Virus record (IMG/VR): IMGVR_UViG_3300027970_002011
Location: 1 to 64,000 of that record
Direction: 5' to 3' (one strand)
Length of the DNA: 64,000 nt
Origin: a virus
A program made the position numbers and the translations under genes. Positions 5,231-58,139 of the stretch are shown piece by piece. Within the stretch, counting starts at the first letter, position 1. Each line of letters opens with the position of its first letter. Below the pieces are notes generated by a model. That model saw only the letters and a list, made by a program, of their open reading frames with translations, searched no databases and was not told the DNA's origin.

Positions 5231-6007
5231 GTGACCAACGAGAAAATTTATCAATACGTTTTGAAATACTCTTATGTGTTTGACCAAATACCAAACATAC
5301 TTGACCTTATTACCGTACAAATTAATAAATTGTGGGAATGGGAGTATGGTGGAAGATTTAGGAAATTTACAAATGATGATGATTCCAAATTTGCAATTAT
5401 GTTATTTCTACATAGAGAAGGATATTCTTATGACCAAATTATTAATAAAGTTAAAAATACTACCGCAATAATCCTTGGTTCCGAAAACGAAGCCCAAATT
5501 TCAGATACTTGTGATGAATGCGGTGGAGATGGTCGTTATGATTGCTCAATGTGTGATGGTAGTTCAACAGTTGAATGTGATGACTGTGATGGAACAGGAG
5601 AAGTGGATGGTGAGCCTTGCTCCTCGTGTCAGGGTGGAGGTGAACTTGATTGTGGTGAATGCGATGGAGATGGTTATAATCAATGTCATGAATGTGATGG
5701 AGACGGTGTAGTCGAAAACCCCGACAAAACTATGTTTACAACAATAACTTATCTAACCTTCAATCCTGTGATTGCCAACTATTTTAGAGAAAATTTAAAT
5801 GGTGTTGTTCCCGAAATTTCAAACTCAATTTACAATGACTTACATAAATTAGATGAAAGTGATTTTGAAGTTGAATTATTAAACGATTATAAAAAGGTGT
5901 CCAATTATGTTATTGAGGTAACTTCAGACCCTGAGGAATTAACTGAACTAATTTCGGACGCAACTGCCGAAATTGAAAAAAAATACTTATGGATTTTAAC
6001 GGCATAG
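5231..6007 (+). CDS. Protein with DnaJ-type cysteine-rich zinc finger (no J domain)
   Basis: Six CxxCxGx(G/S) repeats; TATTTATA at 5209-5216. Confidence 0.75.
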   Translation: MTNEKIYQYVLKYSYVFDQIPNILDLITVQINKLWEWEYGGRFRKFTNDDDSKFAIMLFLHREGYSYDQIINKVKNTTAIILGSENEAQISDTCDECGGDGRYDCSMCDGSSTVECDDCDGTGEVDGEPCSSCQGGGELDCGECDGDGYNQCHECDGDGVVENPDKTMFTTITYLTFNPVIANYFRENLNGVVPEISNSIYNDLHKLDESDFEVELLNDYKKVSNYVIEVTSDPEELTELISDATAEIEKKYLWILTA

Positions 6008-6916: not shown

Positions 6917-6948
6917 CAAATATAAAAAGAACTTTTCAATTCGTCAAA
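6917..6948 (-). promoter_or_regulatory. Bacteroidota-type promoter TTTG-N20-TATATTTG
   Basis: Consensus elements with correct spacing. Confidence 0.8.
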
Positions 6949-7006
6949 TCTTTTTTTAAAAAAATAGGGAACCTCGATTTTATGACCGTAGTCAACCCAT
7001 TCTTAG

Positions 7007-7079
7007 TTGCGATGCCTTGGAATCGAACCAAGCTATGTGGGCTTATGAGACCCATGGAACACCTTGCCCCCCGCCCGCC
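7007..7079 (-). tRNA. tRNA with CAT anticodon (Met or Ile2), atypical
   Basis: Anticodon arm TGGGT-CTCATAA-GCCCA; T arm CTTGG-TTCGATT-CCAAG; acceptor stem needs a bulge; no encoded CCA. Confidence 0.8.
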
Positions 7080-7082
7080 ATT

Positions 7083-7622
7083 TTATAACTTTAAATATCC
7101 GTGGTCAAACTCCCAATGATGGTTCGGACAAAGTCCTACTAAATTATCTTTTGAGTTTATTTCTGTTATCAAGGATTCATCACTGAACGAAGATACAGAT
7201 TTTATATGACAAACTTGAATGTGTTTATCATAACCACAAACTTTACAAGTTTTATCTCCTTTATTTTTTTCATACACATATTGCGCATGTTTTCTAATTT
7301 CGGCTCTAAACTTATAATAAATCCCTTTCTTTTCAAAAAACTTTTTTTTTGTAATTCCATTAAAGAAACTAAATCTTTCGGGTCTTACAATCTCTTTTTT
7401 TTCTTCTTTTTGTTTTTTCTCTCTTTCTAAATTATTAAACTTAGCAGAACAAGAACTATTACAAAAATATTTTTTTCTTACTTCAGAAACTTTTTGGTTA
7501 TCATTAACCCTTATTACCTCACCACAAGATTTACATATATTTGGTGATTGATAATAATCTTCTAATGATTTTTCTCTTCTTTTTTTATTTCCGATTTCAG
7601 CGGCTTTTTGGTATCTGTTCAT
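7083..7622 (-). CDS. HNH endonuclease (free-standing)
   Basis: CKVCG...VCHIK...NLVGLCPNHHWEFD; N-terminal CxxC...CxxxC; AT-rich. Confidence 0.88.
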   Translation of the reverse strand: MNRYQKAAEIGNKKRREKSLEDYYQSPNICKSCGEVIRVNDNQKVSEVRKKYFCNSSCSAKFNNLEREKKQKEEKKEIVRPERFSFFNGITKKKFFEKKGIYYKFRAEIRKHAQYVYEKNKGDKTCKVCGYDKHIQVCHIKSVSSFSDESLITEINSKDNLVGLCPNHHWEFDHGYLKL

Positions 7623-7694
7623 ATATTATAAATATCACAAATATACCGAAAAACCACCACACAACCAAAAAAATACCTCACAATATATTTTAAT

Positions 7695-7963
7695 GATTAC
7701 AATCCCACTTCCCCACGGTCACCTATCCACGTCATGCGCTGGTTGTACCAGCGGGTGTAATCAAATTTTTAAAGAGCTAAACAACATCCGATAAAAAATC
7801 CCACAACTTTCTATGTTTTCTCAAACACTCGTTGTGGGATTGTGAACCGAGGATTTAACTCCTCTTCTTCCGAGTGTCTCACAAAGATAAAACAATTTTT
7901 TCAAATTGTCAAAGGGGCTAAGTGAAACTTTTTTGTGGGGTGTCTCTACCTTTCGGTGGAGAT
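7695..7963 (-). ncRNA. Candidate multi-domain structured non-coding RNA
   Basis: ORF-free stretch with several perfect stems, alternative pairings and two upstream promoter motifs (see findings). Confidence 0.55.
7882..7913 (-). promoter_or_regulatory. Bacteroidota-type promoter TTTG-N20-TATCTTTG
   Basis: Consensus elements; followed by structured RNA rather than an ORF. Confidence 0.8.
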
Positions 7964-7991
7964 TATAAATATAGTTATACTATTGAAAAGT

Positions 7992-8420
7992 TCAATCTTT
8001 TTCAAAAATATTTTGTAAAATTGTTTTTAAATACACTCCTGTATCCATATTATTGACTTTGTCCAATCCAAAATACCCACATTCAGTATGTTCATGTCCA
8101 TCTTGAGCAGTTTCAAGGTTAGGGTACATATACTCGTGAGTATTCAACAAATAAACATACATCATACCTTTTATACTACCGTCTGTCTTTTTCTTTTTTG
8201 GTAGTATACCCACAAAATCTAAATCATAGTTATCTATGTTAATATCGGTCTCTTCGTAAAACTCTCTATATGCAGCTTCTTTAGTTGATTCATCTTTTTC
8301 AATGTGTCCTGAAGGAATTGACCACATATTAGGGTAAGATGACTTGCCGTTTCTTTTGCACAACAAACATTCACCGTTAACTTTAACGACCACACCACTC
8401 AACCTTTTATAATTTTCCAT
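7992..8420 (-). CDS. NUDIX hydrolase
   Basis: Nudix box GHIEKDESTKEAAYREFYEETDI. Confidence 0.92.
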   Translation of the reverse strand: MENYKRLSGVVVKVNGECLLCKRNGKSSYPNMWSIPSGHIEKDESTKEAAYREFYEETDINIDNYDLDFVGILPKKKKTDGSIKGMMYVYLLNTHEYMYPNLETAQDGHEHTECGYFGLDKVNNMDTGVYLKTILQNIFEKD

Positions 8421-8431
8421 ATTTATAAATA
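8420..8431. promoter_or_regulatory. Palindromic back-to-back TATTTATA motif serving divergent genes
   Basis: tatttataaata occupies most of the 14-bp gap between ATG 8420(-) and ATG 8435(+). Confidence 0.6.
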
Positions 8432-8434
8432 ATC

Positions 8435-8785
8435 ATGAAAGTTAAAATAGACGATAACACCTTTAATGTAAAGGTTATGGACGATTACCGTAAACGTGCT
8501 GAGGGTATGATGAACAAAACTTTTAACGAATATTTTAACGGTATGTTGTTTCTGATGACCGACCATACTAATTGTTTTTGGATGAAAAATTGTATAATAC
8601 CTTTAGATATTATCTACATTGACGACCAAATCATATCAAAGGTTCACCACAATTGTCCACCATGTGTTGATGAAGACTGTGAGAGTTACTGTGGTAGAGG
8701 TTATATTATATTGGAAATTGAAGGTGGTACTTGTAAAAGTTTTAATATTAAAAAAGGAGATTCTGTTAAGTTTCTCGTTGATTAA
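8435..8785 (+). CDS. DUF192 family protein
   Basis: GMLF...FWMKNCIIPLDIIYID...ILEIEGG. Confidence 0.88.
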   Translation: MKVKIDDNTFNVKVMDDYRKRAEGMMNKTFNEYFNGMLFLMTDHTNCFWMKNCIIPLDIIYIDDQIISKVHHNCPPCVDEDCESYCGRGYIILEIEGGTCKSFNIKKGDSVKFLVD

Positions 8786-17226: not shown

Positions 17227-18216
17227 ATGGCGTTTATTGACTTAGTAATTCAAGATTTTAATGAAGGTGATTATGACCTTTTAGAAACCGCATTTAATGG
17301 GGATGTCAACACATTTTTTAATTATGTTAATAAAAAAGGTAAATTTGAAGAGATAATTGCCGATGATTATAATCATAACGATTATGAAAACGATTACATT
17401 CTGTGGGTTTCTAATAACAAACCAGAAATTTTCCGTAAACTTATTGAAGATAAATTATCCGATGTAACATACATTGATGGTAAATGGTATTTTATAACAT
17501 CTGATAGAGGGGATTTATCCAAACTTTATTGTGATGATAGAGATATTGGTCGTAACACAATAGAATCTATATTGTCAGGTGAATATGATAGTTCTGATTA
17601 TTGGGATTCAGGAATAGATGTCTATGACAACGTAATTGATGATTTAAACGACCAAAACAAACAAACTTTAATTGAAAGATTATTAGAGGAATTGAAAGAT
17701 GAAGAAATCTTACCATCAACAGATTTACTAAAAGAAATTGCATCGTCTCAAGGTCATGATGAGTATGTATCTTTAGACACTGAAACATTAAGTAGAATAA
17801 TCAATGATAAAAAATCTATTAAAGAAATCTTACCCGATGATTTAGAAAGTGAGTTGGTGAGTTTATACTGGAGTGCCTATAATGTGGCATATGAAGATGA
17901 ACTCTACGAATCTATTTGGAGTGAACTTGATTCTATATTTGAAGGTAATGGTGAATGGACTCAAACACCTTCCCCTTATGATAAAAATAAATTTACCCAA
18001 AAATTTCAAATACCTTTTATAGATTTAGAGTCAATTGTAAAAGATTATCTTGAAGATAATCTTAGATATAAAGATAGAACCTTGGAGTATTGGGGTAATA
18101 TTATTAATATAATTGATGATACACATGAGTGTTTAAGAGTTAGAGTACCTGAATATGCAGATTGGACTGAAACCAAACAAAATATCAATTCTCTTTACAA
18201 CGATTACATTTCTTAA
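17227..18216 (+). CDS. Highly acidic hypothetical protein
   Basis: 329 aa, D/E-rich; TATTTAT at 17214-17220. Confidence 0.8.
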   Translation: MAFIDLVIQDFNEGDYDLLETAFNGDVNTFFNYVNKKGKFEEIIADDYNHNDYENDYILWVSNNKPEIFRKLIEDKLSDVTYIDGKWYFITSDRGDLSKLYCDDRDIGRNTIESILSGEYDSSDYWDSGIDVYDNVIDDLNDQNKQTLIERLLEELKDEEILPSTDLLKEIASSQGHDEYVSLDTETLSRIINDKKSIKEILPDDLESELVSLYWSAYNVAYEDELYESIWSELDSIFEGNGEWTQTPSPYDKNKFTQKFQIPFIDLESIVKDYLEDNLRYKDRTLEYWGNIINIIDDTHECLRVRVPEYADWTETKQNINSLYNDYIS

Positions 18217-21200
18217 AGTAATCTTTTTTCTTTCGCCTTTACTACAAGTTTTTGAGCTCTGTCTTCAATTGAATTGATAATGACTTCTTGCTCTTTCAAA
18301 GCCTCAATACACACGGCAATCATCTCTTTGTACTTCATGGTGTAGTTGGTCTCTTCACTACCGAATACAAGTTCAGGGAAATATGGTAAAACTTCTTGAG
18401 CAATGAAACCAATGTTTTTGTGTCCAAGTTTTTCTTTATCATCCCAATTATAATAGAATTCAACACCACGAATTTTAATTAAACTTTCAAGTGCAGATTC
18501 AATAGGTTCGATATTTGTCTTTAATCTAATATCAGATGGTCCTTTAGGTCCTGTAGCACCTTGAGCACCTTGTGGTCCTGCAGAACCTGTAGCCCCTGTA
18601 GCACCTTGAGCGCCAAAACCACTGCCCGCCTTTCCTTGAGCCCCTGTAGCACCTTGAGCGCCTCCAGCACCAGGTCCTTGAGAACCTTGAGCACCTTGTG
18701 AACCTGTAGTCGGATTTGGAGCACCTTGAGCTCCTTGAGCACCAGCTCCTTCAGAAGGGAAACCTTGAGCACCTTGCGAACCAACAGCACCTTGAGCTCC
18801 TTGTCCTCCTTGTGGTCCTTGAGCACCTTGTGGTCCTTGTGAACCTTGGCCACCCGCAGCACCTGTTGAGCCACCTCCACCCTGAGAACCTTGTCCCCCT
18901 TGTGTACCCTGAGCACCTTGTCCTCCTTGTGAACCTGTGGCACCTCCACCACCAGTACCACCTTGCGAACCTTGTCCTCCTTGTGAACCTTGTGAACCTT
19001 GAGCACCTGTGGAACCACCACCACCCTGAGAACCTTGTCCTCCCTGAGAACCTTGCGAACCTGTGGCACCTTTACCTCCACCGCCACCTTGTGAACCTTG
19101 TCCTCCTTGAGAACCTTGTGAACCTGTGGCACCTCCACCACCAGTACCACCTTGTGCACCTTGACCTCCTGTCGGACCTGTGGCACCTTTACCTCCTTGA
19201 GAACCTTGTCCTCCCTGAGAACCTTGTCCTCCTGTCGGACCTGTGGCACCTTTACCTCCTTGTGAACCTTGTCCTCCTTGTGAACCCTGACCTCCTGTAG
19301 ACCCTTGAGAACCTTGAGCTCCTTGACCTCCTTGAGAACCTTGAGCTCCTTTACCACCTTGAGAACCTTGTGAACCTGTGGCACCTCCACCACCAGTACC
19401 ACCTTGCGAACCTTGTCCTCCTTGTGAACCTTGTGAACCTTGAGCACCTGTGGAACCACCACCACCCTGAGAACCTTGTCCTCCTTGTGAACCTTGTGCC
19501 CCCGCACCACCTTGTGAACCTTGTCCTCCTTGAGCTCCTTGACCTCCTTGAGAACCCTGAGCACCTTGTCCTCCTTGAGTACCTTGTGAACCTTGAGCAC
19601 CCTGGCTACCAACAGCACCTAACGAACCTTGAGCACCCTGACCACCCTGAGCACCTTGGAAACCTTGTCCTCCTTGAGCCCCTTGATTACCAGTAGCTCC
19701 TTGCGAACCGACAGCTCCTTGAGAACCTTGTCCTCCTTGTGAGCCTTGTGAACCAACCGCTCCTTGCGAACCTTGTCCTCCTTGAGTACCTTGTCCTCCC
19801 TGAGCACCTTGTCCTCCCTGAGCACCTTGTCCTCCTTGAGTACCCTGAGCGCCTTGCCCTCCTTGTGAACCTGTAGCTCCTTGAGCACCTTGTCCTCCTT
19901 GGGTACCCTGAGCACCTTGTCCTCCTTGTGAACCTTGTGAACCTGTGTTACCTTGGGAACCTTGAGCTCCCTGTACTCCTTGACCTCCTTGAGCCCCTTG
20001 AGCACCCTGAGCACCCTGTCCTCCTTGTGAACCTTGAACTCCTTGACCCCCTTGAGCTCCTTGTGAACCTGTATTACCTTGAGTACCTTGAGTTCCTTGT
20101 GCACCTTGTCCTCCTTGAGAACCTGTTGCTCCTTGAGCACCTTGTCCTCCCTGAGTTCCCTGAACACCTTGACCACCTTGAGCTCCTTGTGAACCTGTAT
20201 TACCTTGAGTACCCTGTCCTCCTTGAGCTCCCTGTCCTCCTTGAGCCCCAACTGCTCCTTGGGAACCTTGACCTCCTTGTGAACCTTGAGCACCTTGACC
20301 TCCTTGAGCCCCAACTGAACCGGGACTACCTTGTGAACCTTGTCCTCCTTGAGTACCCTGTCCTCCTTGAGCTCCAACCGCTCCTTGGGAACCTTGTACT
20401 CCTTGCGAACCTTGAGCACCTTTTCCTCCCTGAGAACCTTGAGCACCAACGGCACCTTGCGAACCAACGGCACCTTGCGAACCTTGCCCCCCTTGAGCAC
20501 CTTGATTACCTGTTGCTCCTTGTGAACCAACGGCACCTTGAGAACCTTGTCCCCCTTGAGCACCTTGATTACCTGTCGCTCCTTGTGAACCAACGGCACC
20601 TTGCGAACCTTGTCCTCCTTGAGAACCTTGTGAACCTGTATTACCTTGAGCACCAATAGGACCTTGAACACCCTGAGCACCTTTAGCACCTTGAGGACCT
20701 ACATTACCTTGACTTCCTTGTCCTCCTTGAAAACCTTGACCTCCTTGAGTACCTTGAGAACCTACAGGTCCAACAGCACCCTGTGAACCTTGAACACCAT
20801 CAGCGCCTACCGCACCTTGAGCACCTGTATTACCCTGAGAACCTTGTCCTCCTTGAGAACCTTGTCCTCCTTGAGAACCTTGTGAACCTGTATTACCCTG
20901 AGAACCTTGAACACCCTGAGCTCCTTGTCCTCCTTGAGAACCCTGTCCTCCCTGAGTACCTTGAGCTCCTTGTCCTCCTTGAGAACCCTGTCCTCCCTGA
21001 GCACCTTGTGAACCTACACCACCAACAGCACCTTGTGAACCTTGAGTCCCTTGAGAACCCTGCCCTCCCTGAGTACCTTGTGAACCTTGAGGTCCTTTTC
21101 CACCTTGGGCACCTTGTCCTCCTTGAGAACCAACATTACCTGTTGCACCTTGTGAACCAACCGAACCTTGTGGACCTGTAGACCCAAAATCACCTTGTTT

Positions 21201-21509
21201 TCCTTGACCTCCTTGAGTTCCCTGAGCACCCGCAGCACCCTGAGCACCTGTTGGTCCGGTATTTGTTGTGCCAGCCCAAAGAGCATTATTAACTACAGTA
21301 CCTGCAGTTGTTGCAATAGTACTAAAAACATAAAGATTGTTAAAAAATAACCTAAATTTAGGTGAGGTATTAATAACTTTAAAATAAACAGTAGTACTAA
21401 CTTTCCAATCAAGTACAGCACTGGAGTAAACCCAAGTTGCCTTAGTATTATTTGTATCATACAACTCAACAGTTGCACTACCTGGTAATATAACGATATC
21501 CTTAGCCAC
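18213..21509 (-). CDS. Collagen-like fibre protein with C-terminal peptidase S74 chaperone
   Basis: About 900 aa of G-X-Y (GSQ/GGQ/GAQ), then SDIRLKTNI...GFIAQEV. Confidence 0.9.
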
Positions 21510-24500
21510 CTATTTTTATACTTAAATCTTTAAGAAAATTATTCAATACTTCAACTCTTTTTTGGTTTTCAATTAATGCCGATATGCCAACCGAAACCAA
21601 TAGCTCATATTGTAAATTCTTATAACCATATTTATCTGTCCAAACTAAATCTGGATATTTTTCTTCAATTTCTTGAGCAATAAATCCAAGGTTTACACCT
21701 GTAATTAGGTATTTGTGTTCTGGTAAATAATCTGACAATTGAGGAATGTCCTCAACCCAATCAAATTTAACACCTCTCATGCTAACAATGTTTTGTCTAA
21801 CGTCTGTAAGAGGTTTAATGTTTGTTTTATATCTGGCATCTGATGGTGGTCCTTGAGCACCTTTAGCACCTTGAGTACCCTGTGGTCCTTTACCACCTTG
21901 AGCACCTGTACCTCCTTGCGGTCCTCTTTGGCCTTGAGAACCCTCGGCTCCTTGAGCTCCGTTACCACTCGGTCCTTTTGTACCAGTGGCACCTTGAGAA
22001 CCTTGTGCACCTGCCGGCCCTTTTGGACCTTGAGCACCTTGAGCACCTGGTGTTGGAGGACCTGTGGCACCAAGAACACCTGTAGTTCCTTGAGCCCCTT
22101 GGTTTCCTGCAACTCCTGTATTTCCCGCGGCTCCTTGAGCACCTTGTGTGGATGACGCAGCACCTTGAGTTCCTTGGGCTCCTTGAGCCCCTTGTACCGA
22201 ACTTTGAGCACCTTGGGCTCCTTGAGTTGTGCTATTAGCTCCCTGAGCTCCTGTATTACCTTGAGCACCTGTTGCACCTTGAGTAGAACCTTGAGCACCT
22301 TGAGCTCCTGTTGAACCTCCACCACCTTGTGAACCTTGAGCACCGGTGACACTACTTTGAGCACCTTGAGCTCCTTGACCTCCTTGAGAACCTTGACCTC
22401 CTTGTGCACCTTGTACAGAACTTTGAGCTCCTTGAGCACCTTGTCCTCCTTGGGAACCTTGACCTCCTTGTGCACCTGTACTAGCACCTTGAGCCCCTTG
22501 TGAACCCTGAGCCCCTTGGGCACCTGTGTTACCTTGTGCACCGGTACTAGCACCTTGAGCTCCTTGTGAACCTTGTGCACCTTGGGCACCTGTATTACCT
22601 TGAGCACCGGTACTAGCTCCTTGAGCACCTTGGGCTCCTTGAGCACCTTGTTTACCCGTAGCTCCTTGGTCACCTTGGACCGAACTTTGAGCACCTTGAG
22701 CTCCTTGTCCACCCTGAGCCCCTTGTCCACCCTGAGCCCCTGTATTAGCTCCTTGGGCACCTTGAGCACCTGTTGAACCACCACCACCTTGTGAACCCTG
22801 AGCACCCGTGACACTACTTTGAGCACCAGTATTTCCTTGTGAACCCTGAGCACCTGTTTTTCCTTGAGCACCCGTAACTCCACCTTGAGCACCTTGTGCT
22901 CCTTGAGCACCTTGTTTACCAACAGCACCTTGAGCACCTGTAATTGCTCCTTGAGGACCCTGAGTACCTTGAGCCCCTGTATTACCTGTCGCTCCTTGAG
23001 CACCTGTATTACCACCTTGAGCACCTGTGCTACCTTGAGTACCTTGAGCTCCTTGAGCCCCTTGGGCTCCCGTATTAGCACCTTGAGCACCTTGTGCCCC
23101 TTGACCACCTTGAGCACCTGTCGCTCCTTGAGCTCCCGTAGTTCCACCTTGAGCACCTGTACTACCTTGAGCACCTGTATTACCCGTCGCACCTTGTGCT
23201 CCCGTGGTTCCACCTTGAGCTCCTTGAGCCCCTTGAGCACCTGTATTACCTGTTGCACCTTGAGCACCTGTGACTCCACCTTGAGCCCCTTGAGCACCTT
23301 GTCCTCCTTGAGCACCTGTAACTCCCGTAGCTCCTGCGGTTCCTCCTTGAGCACCTATATTACCTTGGGCACCGGTATTACCTGTAGCACCTTGTGCACC
23401 CTGTACAGAACTTTGAGCACCTTGAGCACCTTGAGCTCCTTGAGCTCCTGTATTACCTTGGGCACCTTGAGAAGCACCTTGAGCTCCTTGAGCACCTTGA
23501 GCACCTGTATTACCCGTAGCTCCTTGAGCACCCTGAACAGAACTTTGAGCACCTTGAGCTCCTTGAGCACCTTGAGCACCTGTTTTTCCTTGAGCTCCCG
23601 TAACACCACCTTGAGCACCTTGAGCTCCTTGAGCACCTTGTTTTCCGACGGCTCCTTGAGCACCTGTATTAGCACCTTGAGCTCCTTGAAATCCTTGAGC
23701 TCCTTGTGCACCCGTACTACCTTGAGCACCTGTAACACCACCTTGAGCACCTTGAGCACCTTGAGCACCTTGTTTGCCTGTAGCTCCTTGGTCACCTTGA
23801 ACCGAACTTTGAGCACCCACAGAACCTTGAGTACCTTGGGCACCCTGAGCACCTTGTGCACCTGTGTTAGCACCTTGTGCTCCTTGAGAACCTGTTGGTC
23901 CCTGAGCACCTTGAGCACCTTGTGCACCTGTGTTAGCACCCTGAGCACCTTGAGCACCTTTAGGTCCTTGAGCTCCTTGTCCACCTTGAGCACCCGTACT
24001 AGCACCTTGTGCTCCTTGAGCCCCTTGTCCACCTTGAGCTCCTTGTCCACCTTGAGCACCAGGAGTATCATCCGTACCACCCTGAGTACCTTGTGCTCCT
24101 TGAGCACCTTGGGCACCTTGAGCTCCTGTGTTTGCACCTTGAGCACCTTGAGCACCTATCGGTCCTTGAGAACCTTGTGCACCTGTTGGTCCGATTACAT
24201 TACTTGCAGTTCCCTGACTACCTTGTGCTCCTTGAGCACCTGTGTTACCTTGAGCACCCGTGCTAGCACCTTGAGCTCCTTGAGCTCCTTGAGTACCTTG
24301 AGCACCTGTATTACCTTGAGCTCCTTGAGTGGTACTATTAGCACCTTGAGTTCCTTGAGCACCTTGTGCACCCGTTTTTCCTTGGGCACCTTGGACTGAA
24401 CTTTGAGCACCTTGAGTTCCTTGAGCACCTTGAGCACCTTGAGCTCCTGTATTACCTTGAGCTCCTGTGTTCGCACCCTGAGCACCCTGAGCACCTTGTG

Positions 24501-24975
24501 TACCCTGAACTCCTTGAGCCCCTGTGTTAGCCCCTTGGGCACCCTGTCCACCTTGCGTACCTTGGGCTCCCTGTCCACCTTGTGTACCTTGAGCCCCTTG
24601 AGGACCTTGACCTCCTTGAGCCCCTTGAGCACCCGTTGGTCCTTGAGTACCTTGAGCTCCTTGAGCTCCTTTAATATTGGCTTGTGAACCTATCCATTCT
24701 CCAAGATAGTTAATAATCTGAACATACGATGAACTACCATCCCACGCATAAATACCTTCACCATTACTTATGTCATTAACAGAAAAACCATTAGAAGTGA
24801 CTGCTTGAGTACCAATACTACCTACAGAAGAATCCGTGGATGATGAGAATGTTAAATCACCATTAGCATTAACTTTTTGAACCAACTGATTACCAGTGGC
24901 ATCCTCATAAATAATAAAAGGTACTCCACCTGAAAAGGTGTTACCTGAAGGGTATATTATAATATCATTAGCCAT
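21502..24975 (-). CDS. Collagen-like fibre protein (interrupted repeats) with S74 chaperone
   Basis: GAQ repeats with regular 4-residue interruptions, then SDARYKTNI...GFIAQEI. Confidence 0.9.
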
Positions 24976-27900
24976 TAGTAATTCTCAATATATTCCTCTA
25001 ACATAGTTAATCTTTCATCAACAGATGCAATGTTATTTTGATGTTCTTTAATACCTTCAACTAAATATGCATTAAGTTGGGGATAAAGGATATAATAAAA
25101 TCCATTATCTCTCATTTTTACTACTTCAGGGATGTGTTCTCTAACTTGTTGAGCAACAAACCCTAAAGAGTGTGTTTTGTTATTTTCTAAATAATAATTG
25201 TATTCAGGAGTATCTTCGGTCCAATCAAATTCAACAGGTTGTAACATCATCAATTTTGTTAATGAACCCTCTAAAGTTATAACTTCGTTTTTAAGTCTTA
25301 AATCTGATGAGTCATCACAACACATTAATATACATTCAGGGTTCACTTGAGCCTCACCAAACGACATAAATGCACCTCCAAAGAAGGGGTCACAACTATT
25401 ACAATCACCCCTATCATATACAGAATCATTAGACAAACATTGTGGGTTCATTGTAGATGAATAAACAGTATAAGAACCAACCTGATTAGTTAAAGTACAA
25501 TCCATATAAAGCTCATGCATACCCAAATTATAACATGTAGGTCCTGATGGTGGACCTGTATCACCTTGGGCACCTTGAGCACCTTGAGGACCTGTTATAC
25601 CCGTTGCACCTTGAGCCCCTTGAAAACCTTGACCTCCTGTTTGTCCTTGAGCCCCTTGAGCTCCTTGAGCACCAGGAACACCCACACCACCCTGAGTACC
25701 TTGAGCACCTGTAGGACCAGCAACTGCAACACCTTGAGCACCTTGTGAACCTTGTGATGGTAATCCCTCAGGACCTTGAGCACCTTGTCCTCCTGTTGCA
25801 CCTTGAGCACCAGGACTAATTCCTGTACCTCCTTGTGCACCTTGTCCTCCTGTTGGTCCAAAACCTCCTTGAGCACCTGTCGCTCCTGTACTACCTTGAG
25901 GTCCAAGATTACCTGTATTACCTGTCGGTCCTTTACCACCTTGAGCACCTTGTGAACCTGTGGCACCTCCACCACCTGTAGGACCAACCGCACCTACAGA
26001 ACCTGTACCACCTTGAGAACCCTGAGCTCCTGTGGAACCTTGAGGTCCAAGATTACCCGTAGCACCAGTATTACCTTGGGCTCCGGTATTACCCGTATTA
26101 CCTTGAGGTCCTATATTACCCGTAGCACCTGTATTACCTTGAGCACCTTGTGGTCCTGTTGCACCTTGCGAACCTGAGTGACCTGTAGCACCCTGAGCTC
26201 CTGTGGAACCTCCACCACCCGTAGCACCTTGTGCTCCTGAATGACCTGTAGCACCCTGAGCTCCTGTGGAACCTCCACCACCCGTAGCACCTTGTGCACC
26301 GGTATGTCCTTGAGCACCTACGTTACCTTGTGAACCTACAGGTCCTGTAGCACCTGTCGGACCTATATTACCTTGAGCACCAACATTACCTTGAGCACCC
26401 GTATTTCCTGTAGCACCTTGTGCACCTGTATTTCCTGTTGCACCGGCACCACCTTGAGAACCTTGAGCACCTGTAGAACCTTGTGGTCCAATCGCACCTG
26501 TATTACCTTGGGCACCCGTTGAACCTTGAGGTCCTGTTGCTCCTTGTGGTCCAACAGCCCCTTGAGCACCTTCATTACCAAATGCACCTGTTTGTCCTGT
26601 AGCTCCTTGTGGTCCTATTGGTCCTTGAGCACCCGTTGAACCTTGAGAACCTTGTGGACCCGTGGCTCCTTGAGGTCCAATAGACCCTGTACCACCCTGA
26701 GCTCCTTGAGCACCCGTGTTTCCCGTTGCTCCTTGAGCTCCGGTATTACCTTGAGCACCTTGTGGTCCTTTAGCTCCTTGTGGTCCAATAGCACCTTGTG
26801 GTCCAATAGCACCTTGAGTACCCGTTGAACCTTGAGAACCTTGTGGTCCGACGGCACCTTGTGGTCCAACTTTACCTTGAGCACCCGTTGAACCTTGAGC
26901 TCCTTGTGGTCCGACGGCACCTTGTGGTCCAACATTACCTTGAGCACCCGTTGAACCTTGAGCTCCTTGTGGACCTTTAGGTCCTTGTGGTCCAATTGAC
27001 CCTTGGCTTCCTGTATTACCTTGAGAACCCGTAGGTCCTGTGTTTCCTGTCGGTCCAAGATTACCTTGAGCACCGGTGTTACCTTGAGCACCTTGTGGTC
27101 CTGTATTACCTTGTGCACCTGTATGACCTTGAGCTCCTGTTGAACCTTGAGAACCTGTTGGTCCTGTGTTCCCTGTGGGTCCAAGATTACCTTGAGCACC
27201 TATATTACCTTGAGCACCTTGTGGTCCTGTATTACCTTGAGGTCCTACCGCACCTTGAGCACCTTCATTACCAAATGCTCCCGTGGTACCTGTGGCTCCT
27301 TGAGCACCGGTATTACCTTGAGCACCTTGTGGTCCTTGAGCACCTTGTGGTCCCGTATTTCCTTGTGGTCCTAAAGCACCTTGAGCACCTGTCGAACCTT
27401 GGGAGCCGGTCGGTCCTGTAGCCCCTGTTGGTCCTACTGCACCTTGTGCTCCTATATTACCTTGTGCACCCGTGTTACCCGTGGCTCCTTGTGCTCCTGT
27501 ATGTCCTATATTACCTTGAGCTCCTTGAGCACCGGTATTACCCGTAGCTCCTTGAGCACCTGTATGTCCCGTATTACCTTGAGCCCCTTGAGCACCTGTA
27601 TTACCCGTAGCTCCTTGAGCACCTTTATTACCCTGAGCACCGGTATTGCCTTGAGCACCTGTATTACCCGTAGCACCCGGAGGACCAATAGGTCCTTGAG
27701 CACCTGTATTACCTTGTGCACCTGCATTACCCGTAGAACCTTGAGCACCTGTATTGCCCGTAGAACCTTGTTTACCTTGAGCCCCTTGGTCTCCTTGAGC
27801 ACCTTGGTTACCAATTTTACCTTGAGCTCCTATGGCTCCTTGAGCACCTGTGTTACCTATGGCTCCTTGAGCACCTGTGTTACCTTGTGCTCCTACGTTA

Positions 27901-28544
27901 CCTTGAGCACCTTGTGGTCCTTGAGCTCCTGTAAGTCCTTGAGCTCCTTGAGCCCCTATATTACCCTGTGCACCCGTTGGTCCTACCGCACCCGTTGGTC
28001 CAATATTACCGATTGCACCTTGAGCACCTATATTACCCTGTGCACCCGTTGGTCCTACCGCTCCTTGAGCACCTGTATTACCAATGTTACCTTGAGCACC
28101 TGTATTACCCGTAGCTCCTTGAGCACCTGTATGTCCTGTATTACCTTGAGCACCTTGAGCTCCAACGTTTCCTTGAGCACCCGTATCGCCCACCTTACCC
28201 TGAGCACCAATATTACCTGTATTACCTTGAGCACCTGTATTACCCGTAGCACCTTGAGCGCCAACAATATTTGTTGTGGGACCTACCCATCCTTTAGTAC
28301 CATTTAAAACTTGGACACCATTGACAGATAGATTATCTGTAACATTAAGATTTCTAACTGTGAATTCAGTATCAGATAATTTGAATATTGTGTTAGCACC
28401 GACAATCCATTGAAAACTCGTTGTGGCTCCACCTGTTGCAAGCACACGACCAGTCATTGATGCAGTTCCACCATCAAAATAAAAATAAGGAACTGTTATA
28501 CTTGCTCCATCCCCATCGGGATAAATAGTAATATTTTTAGGCAT
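24975..28544 (-). CDS. Collagen-like fibre protein with Cys-rich domain and S74 chaperone
   Basis: GAQ/GNT/GPQ repeats, a Cys-rich segment, then SDLRLKNEV...GFVAQQV. Confidence 0.9.
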
Positions 28545-28615
28545 CTTTGGATTTTATACTCTCTATAAATACAATGAGTTCTAAAACAAATCAAGGAAAA
28601 AACAATAAAATAAAA

Positions 28616-39029: not shown

Positions 39030-39071
39030 AACGGTCGTTTTAATCTATAAATATCTAAACTTACAGAATGA

Positions 39072-49561: not shown

Positions 49562-50434
49562 TTAGAAATTTTCAATTTTTGTTATCATTTGTTTCATGAC
49601 TTGCTCAATCATATTAATAACATTATCTTGGTTCTCACCATCGTGTCGTGTTACAATTTTCAAATCTTTTTTAAGTTCATCCAAATCCAAATTTTTAATC
49701 AGTCCAATTTTCTTGTCAACATTATTCTTAGCCTTACGATATTGAAACCTATTAAGAGCCTCCACACGAAATATAAAAATGAATTTAGACAAGTCTTCAT
49801 ATTCCCACCCGTTTTTGTTAACCAAATGGTCTTCAATCGCACTATCTATCTGATTGTATATTTGGACAGTACCACCAAGAGCATTTTGAGTTTCCTCGGT
49901 AAAGAATGCCAATTTATTGTAATTACTATTCTTCTGCTCACCCTTTCTAATTAGATAAGCTAAGAAACCATTCTTAGAATATCTTACAAAAGAAAAGTTA
50001 TCAGTTTTTGCCGCAGTACACCACTTTGTATTAGAACCATATTTTAAAGAACCTATTTTAGTTAAAGGCTCCAAAAACAAATAATTCTTATCCTCATAGA
50101 GAATACGTATGTGTTCATCACGATTGAACTCAGAATCAAATTTTTTATTTCTAGCAGTTTCAACAACAGACAATAATGTTTGCCAAGATTTATATTTTTC
50201 ATGATACAAATCTTTTTCTTCAATCAAATGAATGTATAATTCAAAATCTTTTACCGTATCAATAATTTCTCTACTAACATAGTTTAGATTTTCGTTTTTT
50301 CTATTGACCCACATACTACAAAAGTATCTCAAATACTTTGTGGTTTGAGTGTAGTCTGCATTGGAAAACTTATTAAACATCACCTTCCCAATCTGTGACT
50401 CATATTGTTGTCTTAATTCATCTCTCTTAGACAT
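49562..50434 (-). CDS. Protein with WCT (PcfJ-like) domain
   Basis: GSLKYGSNTKWCTAA...F.RY...G.LAYLI, similar to the domain in 29883..31214. Confidence 0.7.
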   Translation of the reverse strand: MSKRDELRQQYESQIGKVMFNKFSNADYTQTTKYLRYFCSMWVNRKNENLNYVSREIIDTVKDFELYIHLIEEKDLYHEKYKSWQTLLSVVETARNKKFDSEFNRDEHIRILYEDKNYLFLEPLTKIGSLKYGSNTKWCTAAKTDNFSFVRYSKNGFLAYLIRKGEQKNSNYNKLAFFTEETQNALGGTVQIYNQIDSAIEDHLVNKNGWEYEDLSKFIFIFRVEALNRFQYRKAKNNVDKKIGLIKNLDLDELKKDLKIVTRHDGENQDNVINMIEQVMKQMITKIENF

Positions 50435-58122: not shown

Positions 58123-58139
58123 CAGTTATAAATAATATT

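Follow-up and report, generated by a model that had tools for sequence, protein, structure and literature searches.

What is the non-coding stretch that separates a NUDIX hydrolase gene (7992-8420) from an HNH endonuclease gene (7083-7622) in the IMG/VR virus record IMGVR_UViG_3300027970_002011, and does it encode an RNA of its own? The window analyzed here comprises 64,000 nucleotides (nt), positions 1-64,000 of this 79.6-kb record, whose completeness was estimated by CheckV at ~26%. The stretch under study (within 7695-7991) is part of the 369-nt gap between the two genes, both of which are on the minus strand, as are all features described below unless stated otherwise. The window is AT-rich (~31% GC), whereas GC content inside the stretch is 0.36-0.42 compared to ~0.30 in its surroundings, and the fold z-score of the stretch against shuffled sequences is -3.4 on each strand. 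We consider it likely that this stretch comprises the regulatory part and the first cargo element of a phage cassette for stable RNAs, carrying a tRNA-Met and the large RNA GOLLD behind a leader of the ribosomal RNA operon (rrn) type on the minus strand, and that this cassette has decayed in the phage studied here.

Database searches provided no name for the stretch. No Rfam family was found at its gathering score, nor any at E up to 10, in searches over 801 and 106 nt, which agrees with a first-pass annotation of the window that had described non-coding DNA of no recognized family; weak snoRNA and U7 matches were dismissed as chance. A blastn search of INPHARED phages with 7000-8500 gave no match, and ARAGORN at default settings found no tRNA in the window. 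The same annotation had called the region free of open reading frames (ORFs); small plus-strand ORFs do exist in the window (7693-7794 and 7922-8056), and they are not kept in frame in homologues.

The stretch lies in the slot of a tRNA-Met/GOLLD cassette

Colinearity between the window and 17 relatives extends from 8500 down to ~7790 and picks up again at 6938, reaching 6000. Between these colinear parts the window holds 849 nt, namely the HNH gene and 7623-7787, whereas the same slot in the 17 relatives contains ~1.1 kb with a tRNA-Met(CAT) and a GOLLD RNA that scores 315-326 bits against Rfam RF02032. The closest relatives (L002-L018) share only 7788-7991 of the stretch and lack a 68-nt block that fills its left part; because colinear relatives carry tRNA-Met and GOLLD at this site, the right half of the stretch is the conserved upstream sequence of the tRNA-Met/GOLLD locus. 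The modules of this locus are common to more than 85 lake-phage contigs, and ~85 other contigs carry the block behind different leaders. A tRNA-Met was found downstream of the block in every one of ~80 other contigs, the window being the single exception, and GOLLD followed tRNA-Met in all 10 block loci with enough sequence, starting ~0.9 kb past the tRNA. With GOLLD membership defined as a covariance-model match at or above the gathering score of RF02032 (150 bits), matches at the syntenic site scored 292-329 bits when full-length and 242-263 bits in two cases cut by contig ends, and no GOLLD was detected in the window or in the whole 79.6-kb record. The tRNA-Met-then-GOLLD order in block loci agrees with the published placement of GOLLD env-38 downstream of a Met-tRNA (bioRxiv 10.1101/2024.12.08.627333). 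In one relative (L012), the GOLLD gene has its own promoter of the TTGACA-N17 -33/-7 design, together with a GNRA hairpin and the boxA-like word GUUCUUUAAA.

As we read it, the cassette consists, in order, of a ATATTTATA box, a GNRA hairpin with an A-tract, a promoter of the Bacteroidota sigma-A type, a GAGA-capped two-part hairpin, a boxA and the cargo, which in relatives comprises an optional 68-nt block, a start-type tRNA-Met, a second promoter-hairpin-boxA unit and GOLLD. In the window, an HNH gene has been inserted 9 nt into tRNA-Met and is followed by a crippled tRNA-Met-like copy, and GOLLD has been lost between two similar promoters, so that leader and block now precede the HNH gene.

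Several further observations concern the surroundings of the cassette. Its upstream neighbor, the NUDIX hydrolase gene (7992-8420; Pfam PF00293, E = 2e-15), has a stop codon that adjoins the non-coding locus and is 91-99% identical across 17 related contigs. Optional structured segments occur directly 3' of tRNA-Met, such as a GC-rich hairpin (GUAGACC...GGUCUAC) at ~3365-3440 of L048, and UAAGAAUGGGUUGACUACGGUC...UUUUUUU is found in this position at 6960-7006 of the window and in L077, L079, L082, L096, L104 and L106. Many contigs (L075-L111, L112-L164) end inside the block or tRNA or at most 170 nt from them; these scattered ends do not mark a genome terminus and are as expected if a conserved island in divergent flanks breaks metagenome assemblies. 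Elsewhere in the window, three exceptionally long ORFs of 1098, 1157 and 1189 codons follow one another at 18213-28544, and both strands of this part contain many nested ORFs.

HNH insertion and decay of the cassette

Similarity to intact cassettes ends at 7674, nine bases into tRNA-Met, at the junction with the HNH cassette. The remaining tRNA-Met stump (UGUGAGGUA, 7674-7682) aligns to the first 9 nt of the tRNA-Met in all other block-bearing contigs, and it is followed by the HNH homing-endonuclease cassette (7083-7673), with a -7 box (TATATTTG) at 7645-7638 and an ORF at 7622-7083 that matches Pfam HNH_2 (PF13391, E = 2e-8). This gene has no counterpart in the 17 colinear relatives. The locus shows what would be expected of a homing insertion: an HNH domain, a gene that some colinear genomes have and others lack, and a conserved target gene that is interrupted both in the window and in L041. 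Relatives of the HNH protein (27-55% identity; L022-L045) sit in phage tRNA arrays, one of them with 26 tRNAs in 6 kb, and in at least five loci a tRNA-Met begins 1-20 nt from the HNH stop codon. In L041, the HNH relative interrupts tRNA-Met ~12 nt in, behind the same box-hairpin-promoter-hairpin-boxA leader and without the block. Because relatives adjoin tRNA-Met and the L041 relative interrupts a tRNA-Met that has no block, the HNH gene looks like a homing endonuclease aimed at the tRNA gene and not at the block, and the family, judged by its sequence neighborhoods, looks specialized for homing into phage tRNA genes. A group I intron in tRNA-Met that holds the HNH gene was rejected, since there is only ~76 nt of non-ORF sequence and the 5' half of the tRNA is duplicated, not split.

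Directly after the HNH stop codon, a degenerate tRNA-Met-like sequence (7008-7079) aligns along the whole tRNA-Met. Its anticodon arm (UGGGU-CUCAUAA-GCCCA, with CAU and three G-C pairs) and T arm are good, and its acceptor stem keeps 4 of 7 pairs. Neither ARAGORN at default settings nor the Rfam tRNA model recognized it, its only score being 13.7 bits against tRNA-Sec; ARAGORN needed 80% thresholds (-ps80) to draw it, and then the acceptor stem was broken. This exact variant had no match in IMG/VR. One contig from an RNA library has a 12-nt loose end (GGCGGGCGGGGG) right after the block spacer, a hint that the same tRNA-like variant may follow the block in another phage without the HNH gene.

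Past the tRNA-like sequence, a GOLLD-type promoter (TTGACG-N17-TATATTTG, 6917-6948) is fused directly to a 97-codon gene at 6898-6605. This segment is 95% identical to the one following tRNA-Met in L078, L084 and L109, colinearity with the relatives resumes at 6938, and the fused promoter shares GAAAAGUUCUU with the promoter of the next gene in relatives. This shared word suggests that GOLLD was lost by recombination between these two similar promoters. The GOLLD-type promoter, with its -33 box TTGACG, runs into the -7 box of the next-gene promoter; the two share GAAAAGTTCTT, and the ~0.9 kb that GOLLD occupies in relatives has dropped out cleanly. Together with this loss, the insertion seems to have deprived the phage of its tRNA-Met.

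Promoter elements and the leader

The module farthest upstream is the conserved ATATTTATA box (7964-7972), within which ATATTTAT is unchanged in 17 of 17 distinct homologous sequences. It contains TATTTATA (7964-7971), a motif that the first-pass annotation had paired with a host-type promoter as two signals pointing into the stretch, and both signals are indeed conserved in homologues. In the window, TATAAATA/TATTTATA occurs 18 times compared to 5 expected, and TATTTATA reads on the coding strand, mostly 5-20 nt before start codons; the ATATTTATA/TATTTATA box may be a phage-specific promoter or upstream motif. Its TATAAATA/TATTTATA sites include 7627-7634, 8420-8431, 28564-28571, 39046-39053 and 58127-58134.

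Next comes a GNRA-capped hairpin, CUCCACC-GAAA-GGUAGAG (7944-7961), which had been noted at about this position before and proved to covary in homologues. Covariation was judged by the percentage of paired cells and by a score, with controls in which the pairing partner was slid along the alignment; for this hairpin three of four core pairs covary, 97% of cells are paired (17-44% when slid) and the score is 0.835 (at most 0.121 in slid controls). Downstream of it, and just before the promoter, lie ACACCCCAC and an A-tract (7943-7922), which in homologues take the form RAACAYCCCC plus A-tract. The promoter itself, P1 (7882-7912), is of the Bacteroidota type, with TTGACA at 7912-7907, a 17-nt spacer and TATCTTTG at 7889-7882. 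It exactly fits TTGACA-N17-TAnnTTTG, a pattern with 2 matches in the window compared to 0.2 expected, and its -33 and -7 boxes are kept over varying spacers in 26 distinct homologues. Transcription from P1 would be predicted, on this basis, to start near 7878-7875.

Between P1 and the main leader hairpin, the window carries a 34-nt insert (within 7842-7877) that is present only in its own clade and in L048 and L061 and is lacking in other homologues. The insert consists of ACACUCG (7877-7871) and a hairpin, GAGGA-GUUAAA-UCCUC (7864-7849), which covaries (GGAC/GUCC, AAGGA/UCCUU). The leader hairpin (7793-7841) is boxB-like and has two parts: an outer stem (7841-7831 with 7807-7797) and an inner stem (7828-7823 with 7818-7813) capped by a GAGA loop (7822-7819), with a U-run at 7798-7793. 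Six of its 15 pairs show compensatory changes; the outer stem of 9-11 bp pairs throughout (100%) in 22 distinct sequences, two of its positions showing AU/GC exchanges, and the inner stem covaries below a conserved GAGA loop. Overall, 95% of cells are paired, compared to 33-56% with the partner slid, and the covariation score is 0.395 (at most 0.149 in controls). An alignment of homologues had been proposed as a check on the locus, and these two hairpins, the leader and the GAAA hairpin, are those that it bears out. The leader stems contain many G-U pairs and no A-C pairs, and the RNA strand is for this reason the minus strand.

Beyond the hairpin, a boxA-like word, AGCUCUUUAAAAA, lies at 7766-7778, with its core GCUCUUUA at 7777-7770. 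The boxA word (GCUCUUUAAAAA) reads AGCUCUUUAAAAAUUU at 7778-7763 and corresponds to G[CU]UCUUUAA in homologues; compared to the boxA-spacer of Escherichia coli rrn, ugcucuuuaacaauuua (Table 1 of PMC2724277), 15 of 17 bases match, the yardstick here being E. coli and not the host phylum. Among the loci fetched, 49 of the 53 distinct regions preceding tRNA-Met contain a G[CU]UCUU.. word. Similar to an rrn leader, the boxA word (UGCUCUUUA in E. coli rrn) is therefore found downstream of a promoter with a hairpin between the two, and the cargo in relatives is untranslated stable RNA (tRNA-Met, GOLLD), which in the window is broken. The hairpin and U-run pointed out by the earlier annotation are followed by a boxA word and would fit better as an rrn-type leader hairpin than as a terminator. 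No promoter motif was found between the leader hairpin and the tRNA, so that block and tRNA would be made by read-through. A second exact boxA-like word (GTTCTTTAAAA) occurs at 50042-50052, inside or beside ORF 49562-50434, possibly by chance.

Mechanistically, the host RNA polymerase would initiate at P1, and the nascent hairpin and boxA would recruit NusB/NusE-type factors in the manner of rRNA operons, which would carry the untranslated transcript to the cargo by Nus-dependent antitermination. The block might then be freed as a small RNA by an RNase P cut at the 5' end of the tRNA and by another nuclease acting in the AU-rich spacer after boxA.

Sequence from the locus was also recovered from RNA libraries. 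One quarter to one third of the sampled words of the stretch occur in 14 runs recorded as RNA; these come from 14 studies, which sampled lakes, rivers and estuaries as well as one sediment and one marine site. Parts of the stretch without such cover carry no meaning. Among short contigs from RNA libraries of four studies, one (X2) joins the end of the NUDIX gene to the leader, two others (X3, X7) run from the 3' arm of the leader through the block into the tRNA, and the contigs cover sequence both upstream and downstream of the host-type promoter.

A near-invariant 68-nt block

The block (7695-7762) is closed by a helix of GAUUACA/UGUAAUC followed by CCC/GGG, and its interior fold is ambiguous. 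An 18-mer probe recovered it from ~30 different IMG/VR contigs, a second, non-overlapping probe returned the same set plus two more contigs, and a probe with the inner hairpin left free found 53 metagenome contigs; these three probes (two of them exact) gave only near-identical copies. The copies vary only at nt 17 and nt 46-48, by an insertion or transition at 53-54, by a bulge of 1-3 nt at 60-62, and by a single A7-to-U change for which the 3' side compensates. On average, two copies of the block differ by 0.00-0.02, compared to 0.02-0.20 for the adjoining tRNA and 0.26-0.5 for the flanking sequence. The position of the block is likewise fixed, 5-12 nt past the boxA-like word and 13-16 nt ahead of tRNA-Met. 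It had no Rfam match with E up to 10, even in a search space of 106 nt, and neither ARAGORN nor Rfam RF00005 recognized a cloverleaf in it. The block is thus an uncatalogued element that is absent from Rfam and more conserved than the adjoining tRNA. Of the novelty that the first-pass annotation had claimed for the region, this part stands, whereas the promoter-hairpin-boxA design is of a known kind.

Outside IMG/VR, a 26-nt block pattern matched only one of 185,579 species genomes. This match, L109 (CAZGIL010000023.1, 11.9 kb), is a contig of a metagenome-assembled genome labelled Candidatus Woesearchaeota and carries promoter, hairpin, boxA, block, tRNA-Met and tRNA-Asp; it is probably a mis-binned phage contig. 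That the block derives from a host gene or is an att site was rejected on the ground that its only species-genome match is this phage-like contig with the same cassette. As a coding sequence it was rejected as well, since both the minus frame MTWIGDRGEVGL* and a plus-strand ORF of 33 codons are shifted by 1-nt indels in common variants. Nor did pairing of the block with the downstream tRNA or with GOLLD RNA survive: duplex energies were no better than those of shuffled blocks, and the only sharing, a 7-mer in 14 of 23 loci, was no more than chance would give.

The same annotation had drawn 7695-7762 as a second domain closed by GATTACA/TGTAATC with an inner hairpin. The closing helix is robust (pair probabilities of 0.84-0.99 for GAUUACA/UGUAAUC and CCC/GGG, with the variable bases in between behaving as a bulge), but the inner hairpin has a competitor. 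Of the ensemble, ~50% belongs to an extended irregular hairpin with AUGAC in its apical loop, which is the fold of minimum free energy and also the RNAalifold consensus, compared to ~25-30% for the perfect 7-bp hairpin CGCUGGU-ACA-ACCAGCG. All substitutions either preserve pairing or affect bases that the extended fold leaves unpaired, and they are too few for a covariation test.

In the lowest-energy fold, the apical loop shows AUGA, which is complementary to UCAU of the anticodon loop of the tRNA-Met 13 nt downstream. It is conceivable, if quite doubtful, that the block represents a new class of small phage RNA working with start-type tRNA-Met and GOLLD: its AUGA loop might hold or shield tRNA-Met by a codon-anticodon "kiss" similar to that of a T-box specifier, or might deliver tRNA-Met to the GOLLD cage. 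If true, such a partnership would explain the fixed bases of the block and why it never occurs without tRNA-Met.

Alternative explanations

Some of the observations weigh against a leader and cargo of this kind. The leader hairpin with its U-run lies upstream of boxA and could stop transcription before boxA is made. The block is nearly without covariation, folds with a z-score of only -1.3 and divides its ensemble between two structures, so that it is conservation and context that would mark it as a structured RNA. The RNA-library contigs are assemblies that carry no strand, end or level, with DNA carry-over possible.

The first of these points leads to another explanation, namely that promoter, hairpin and U-run form a small-RNA gene or terminator gate, yielding an RNA of ~85 nt (from ~7878 to 7793); the gate would be opened late by a phage antiterminator for block, tRNA and GOLLD. 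An intrinsic terminator would be expected to have a GC-containing stem with a U-tract immediately behind it, and a short loop. The 11-bp stem of the window directly abuts a U6 run, and 20 of 22 variants of the hairpin have a T-rich run (a U-run of 5-7 nt) after the stem. A 155-nt RNA-library contig (X1), which matches the window from 7943 to 7794 with 0 mismatches, ends 5 nt past 7794, but this end coincides with a strain break-point, and contigs of two other RNA studies run from the leader loop through the U-run into block and tRNA. The ORF at 5231-6007 weakly matches Q-like antiterminators (phrog_127, E = 5e-5), and GOLLD expression was reported to rise during lysis (bioRxiv 10.1101/2024.12.08.627333). 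However, plain terminators do not usually have a loop region of ~23 nt that contains a conserved inner stem under a GAGA cap, none was called here by the terminator scan, and the U-run is broken or absent in some homologues (CUUAAUAAAU in L041, CUUCUUUAAAA in L154). Taken together, we regard a terminator gate as unlikely. The ORF at 5231-6007, on the plus strand, has 258 codons and a zinc-finger region of the DnaJ type (CXXCXGXG), and may bear on read-through of the leader hairpin.

The block could also act at the DNA level or be selfish, as a small insertion with 7-bp inverted ends (GATTACA...TGTAATC) that would move from one phage cassette to another, or a site for a protein or nuclease, its invariance reflecting recent spread or DNA recognition. 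Its presence differs among near-identical genomes (the window has it and L002-L018 do not), and the AT-rich spacers on its two sides, UUUAAAAAUUU and AUUAAGAUAUAUC, are similar to each other and look like the one spacer present in loci without the block. Moreover, both arms of the perfect inner hairpin are unvarying in more than 80 contigs, even when the arms were left free in the search, the block is combined with several different leaders and tRNA variants, and many contigs break within or beside it. On the other hand, its orientation and position are constant, between boxA and tRNA-Met inside the transcribed unit, no further copy, even diverged, was found by a covariance model (R1) in 414 kb of other phage loci, and the only species genome with a match supplies a phage-like contig carrying the same cassette. 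The few substitutions it has keep pairing (C-to-U opposite G, A-to-G opposite U, and the A7-to-U change with its 3' counterpart), RNA-library contigs contain it, and the HNH relative in L041 targets the tRNA where there is no block. This explanation is, in our judgment, rather improbable.

The weakest proposal is that of the first-pass annotation, a single pseudoknotted and switching RNA of ~270 nt with two promoter-dependent isoforms of different folds, which we consider very improbable and which comparison has largely refuted: although its complementarities all exist in the window, two conserved start signals lie upstream and the fold z-score of -3.4 is suggestive, the block is missing from the closest relatives and the 5' arm of the helix from most homologues that do carry the block, and the minimum-free-energy fold uses the leader hairpin and not the pseudoknot helix. 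On the plus strand, and at the coordinates given by that annotation, these complementarities are acactcg (7825-7831) with cgagtgt (7871-7877), enclosing gagga (7849-7853) and tcctc (7860-7864); gttgtgggatt (7831-7841) with aatcccacaac (7797-7807), next to the A6 at 7793-7798 that is the U-run of the minus strand; gtgggattgt (7834-7843) with acaatcccac (7699-7708); and, within the block, GATTACA (7695-7701) with TGTAATC (7756-7762) and CGCTGGT (7737-7743) with ACCAGCG (7747-7753). The relatives do not treat them as one domain, given that the closest of them share only the part from 7788 to 7991 and that the block occurs behind other leaders. The ACACUCG/CGAGUGU helix of the supposed H-type pseudoknot is restricted to the sub-clade with the 34-nt insert and never varies there. 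Similarly, the 10-bp pairing of 7834-7843 with 7699-7708 shrinks to an invariant CCCAC/GUGGG core beside which the variable bases do not covary, and the pairing of 7914-7924 with cacttcccc at 7706-7714 loses its partner, CACUUAGCCCC being replaced by CAUAAAAAU in most homologues. With helix partners absent, invariant or non-covarying, no switch is seen in the homologues.

Comparison with known systems and implications

If the decayed-cassette explanation holds, GOLLD in lake phages of Bacteroidota belongs to a fixed cassette made of an rRNA-style leader, an optional 68-nt RNA, tRNA-Met and GOLLD. This cassette would be dispensable and a target of homing endonucleases, and it would hold one more, uncatalogued element under extreme sequence constraint. 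The block offers a short handle on the role of the cassette, and the window, a natural mutant that has the block and lacks tRNA and GOLLD, provides a ready comparison.

Among known systems, the PR'-tR' unit of phage lambda, with 6S RNA and Q, resembles the locus in having a strong promoter, a U-run hairpin within ~85 nt and promoterless genes beyond. In the window, by contrast, a boxA word lies beyond the hairpin, the Q-like match is weak, and a qut-like site was not identified. Free-standing phage homing endonucleases (T4 Seg/Mob, HNH in tRNA clusters) are a second parallel: the ORF of the window is absent from colinear relatives and sits in a conserved gene, its flanking target is duplicated and diverged, and its relatives are in tRNA arrays, features that are read here from sequence. 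Unlike in those systems, the insertion in the window appears to cost a tRNA-Met and accompanies the loss of GOLLD.

Bacterial rrn leaders contain promoters, a boxB hairpin, boxA and boxC, and support an antitermination complex of NusA/B/E/G, SuhB and S4, comparable to that of the lambda nut sites. The window shares with them a promoter, a hairpin and a boxA word ahead of untranslated stable-RNA genes including tRNA, the hairpin-before-boxA order, and a boxA core (GCUCUUUA) identical to that of rrn (ugcucuuua) in E. coli, which is not of the host phylum. In contrast, its cargo is phage RNA, its hairpin has a U-run and a GAGA-capped inner stem, and no clear boxC is present.

GOLLD is among the largest bacterial and phage RNAs and was reportedly described by Weinberg et al. 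in 2009. GOLLD RNAs form protein-free cages, the structure of which has been reported (Kretsch et al., bioRxiv 10.1101/2024.12.08.627333). The window shares the genomic slot of GOLLD loci (RF02032), as relatives carry tRNA-Met and then GOLLD where it carries the HNH gene, but GOLLD itself is gone and only leader, block and broken tRNA remain. Block and leader modules were not found in the Rfam GOLLD model or in the published GOLLD description. What is new here, compared to these systems, is the block and the decay of the cassette.

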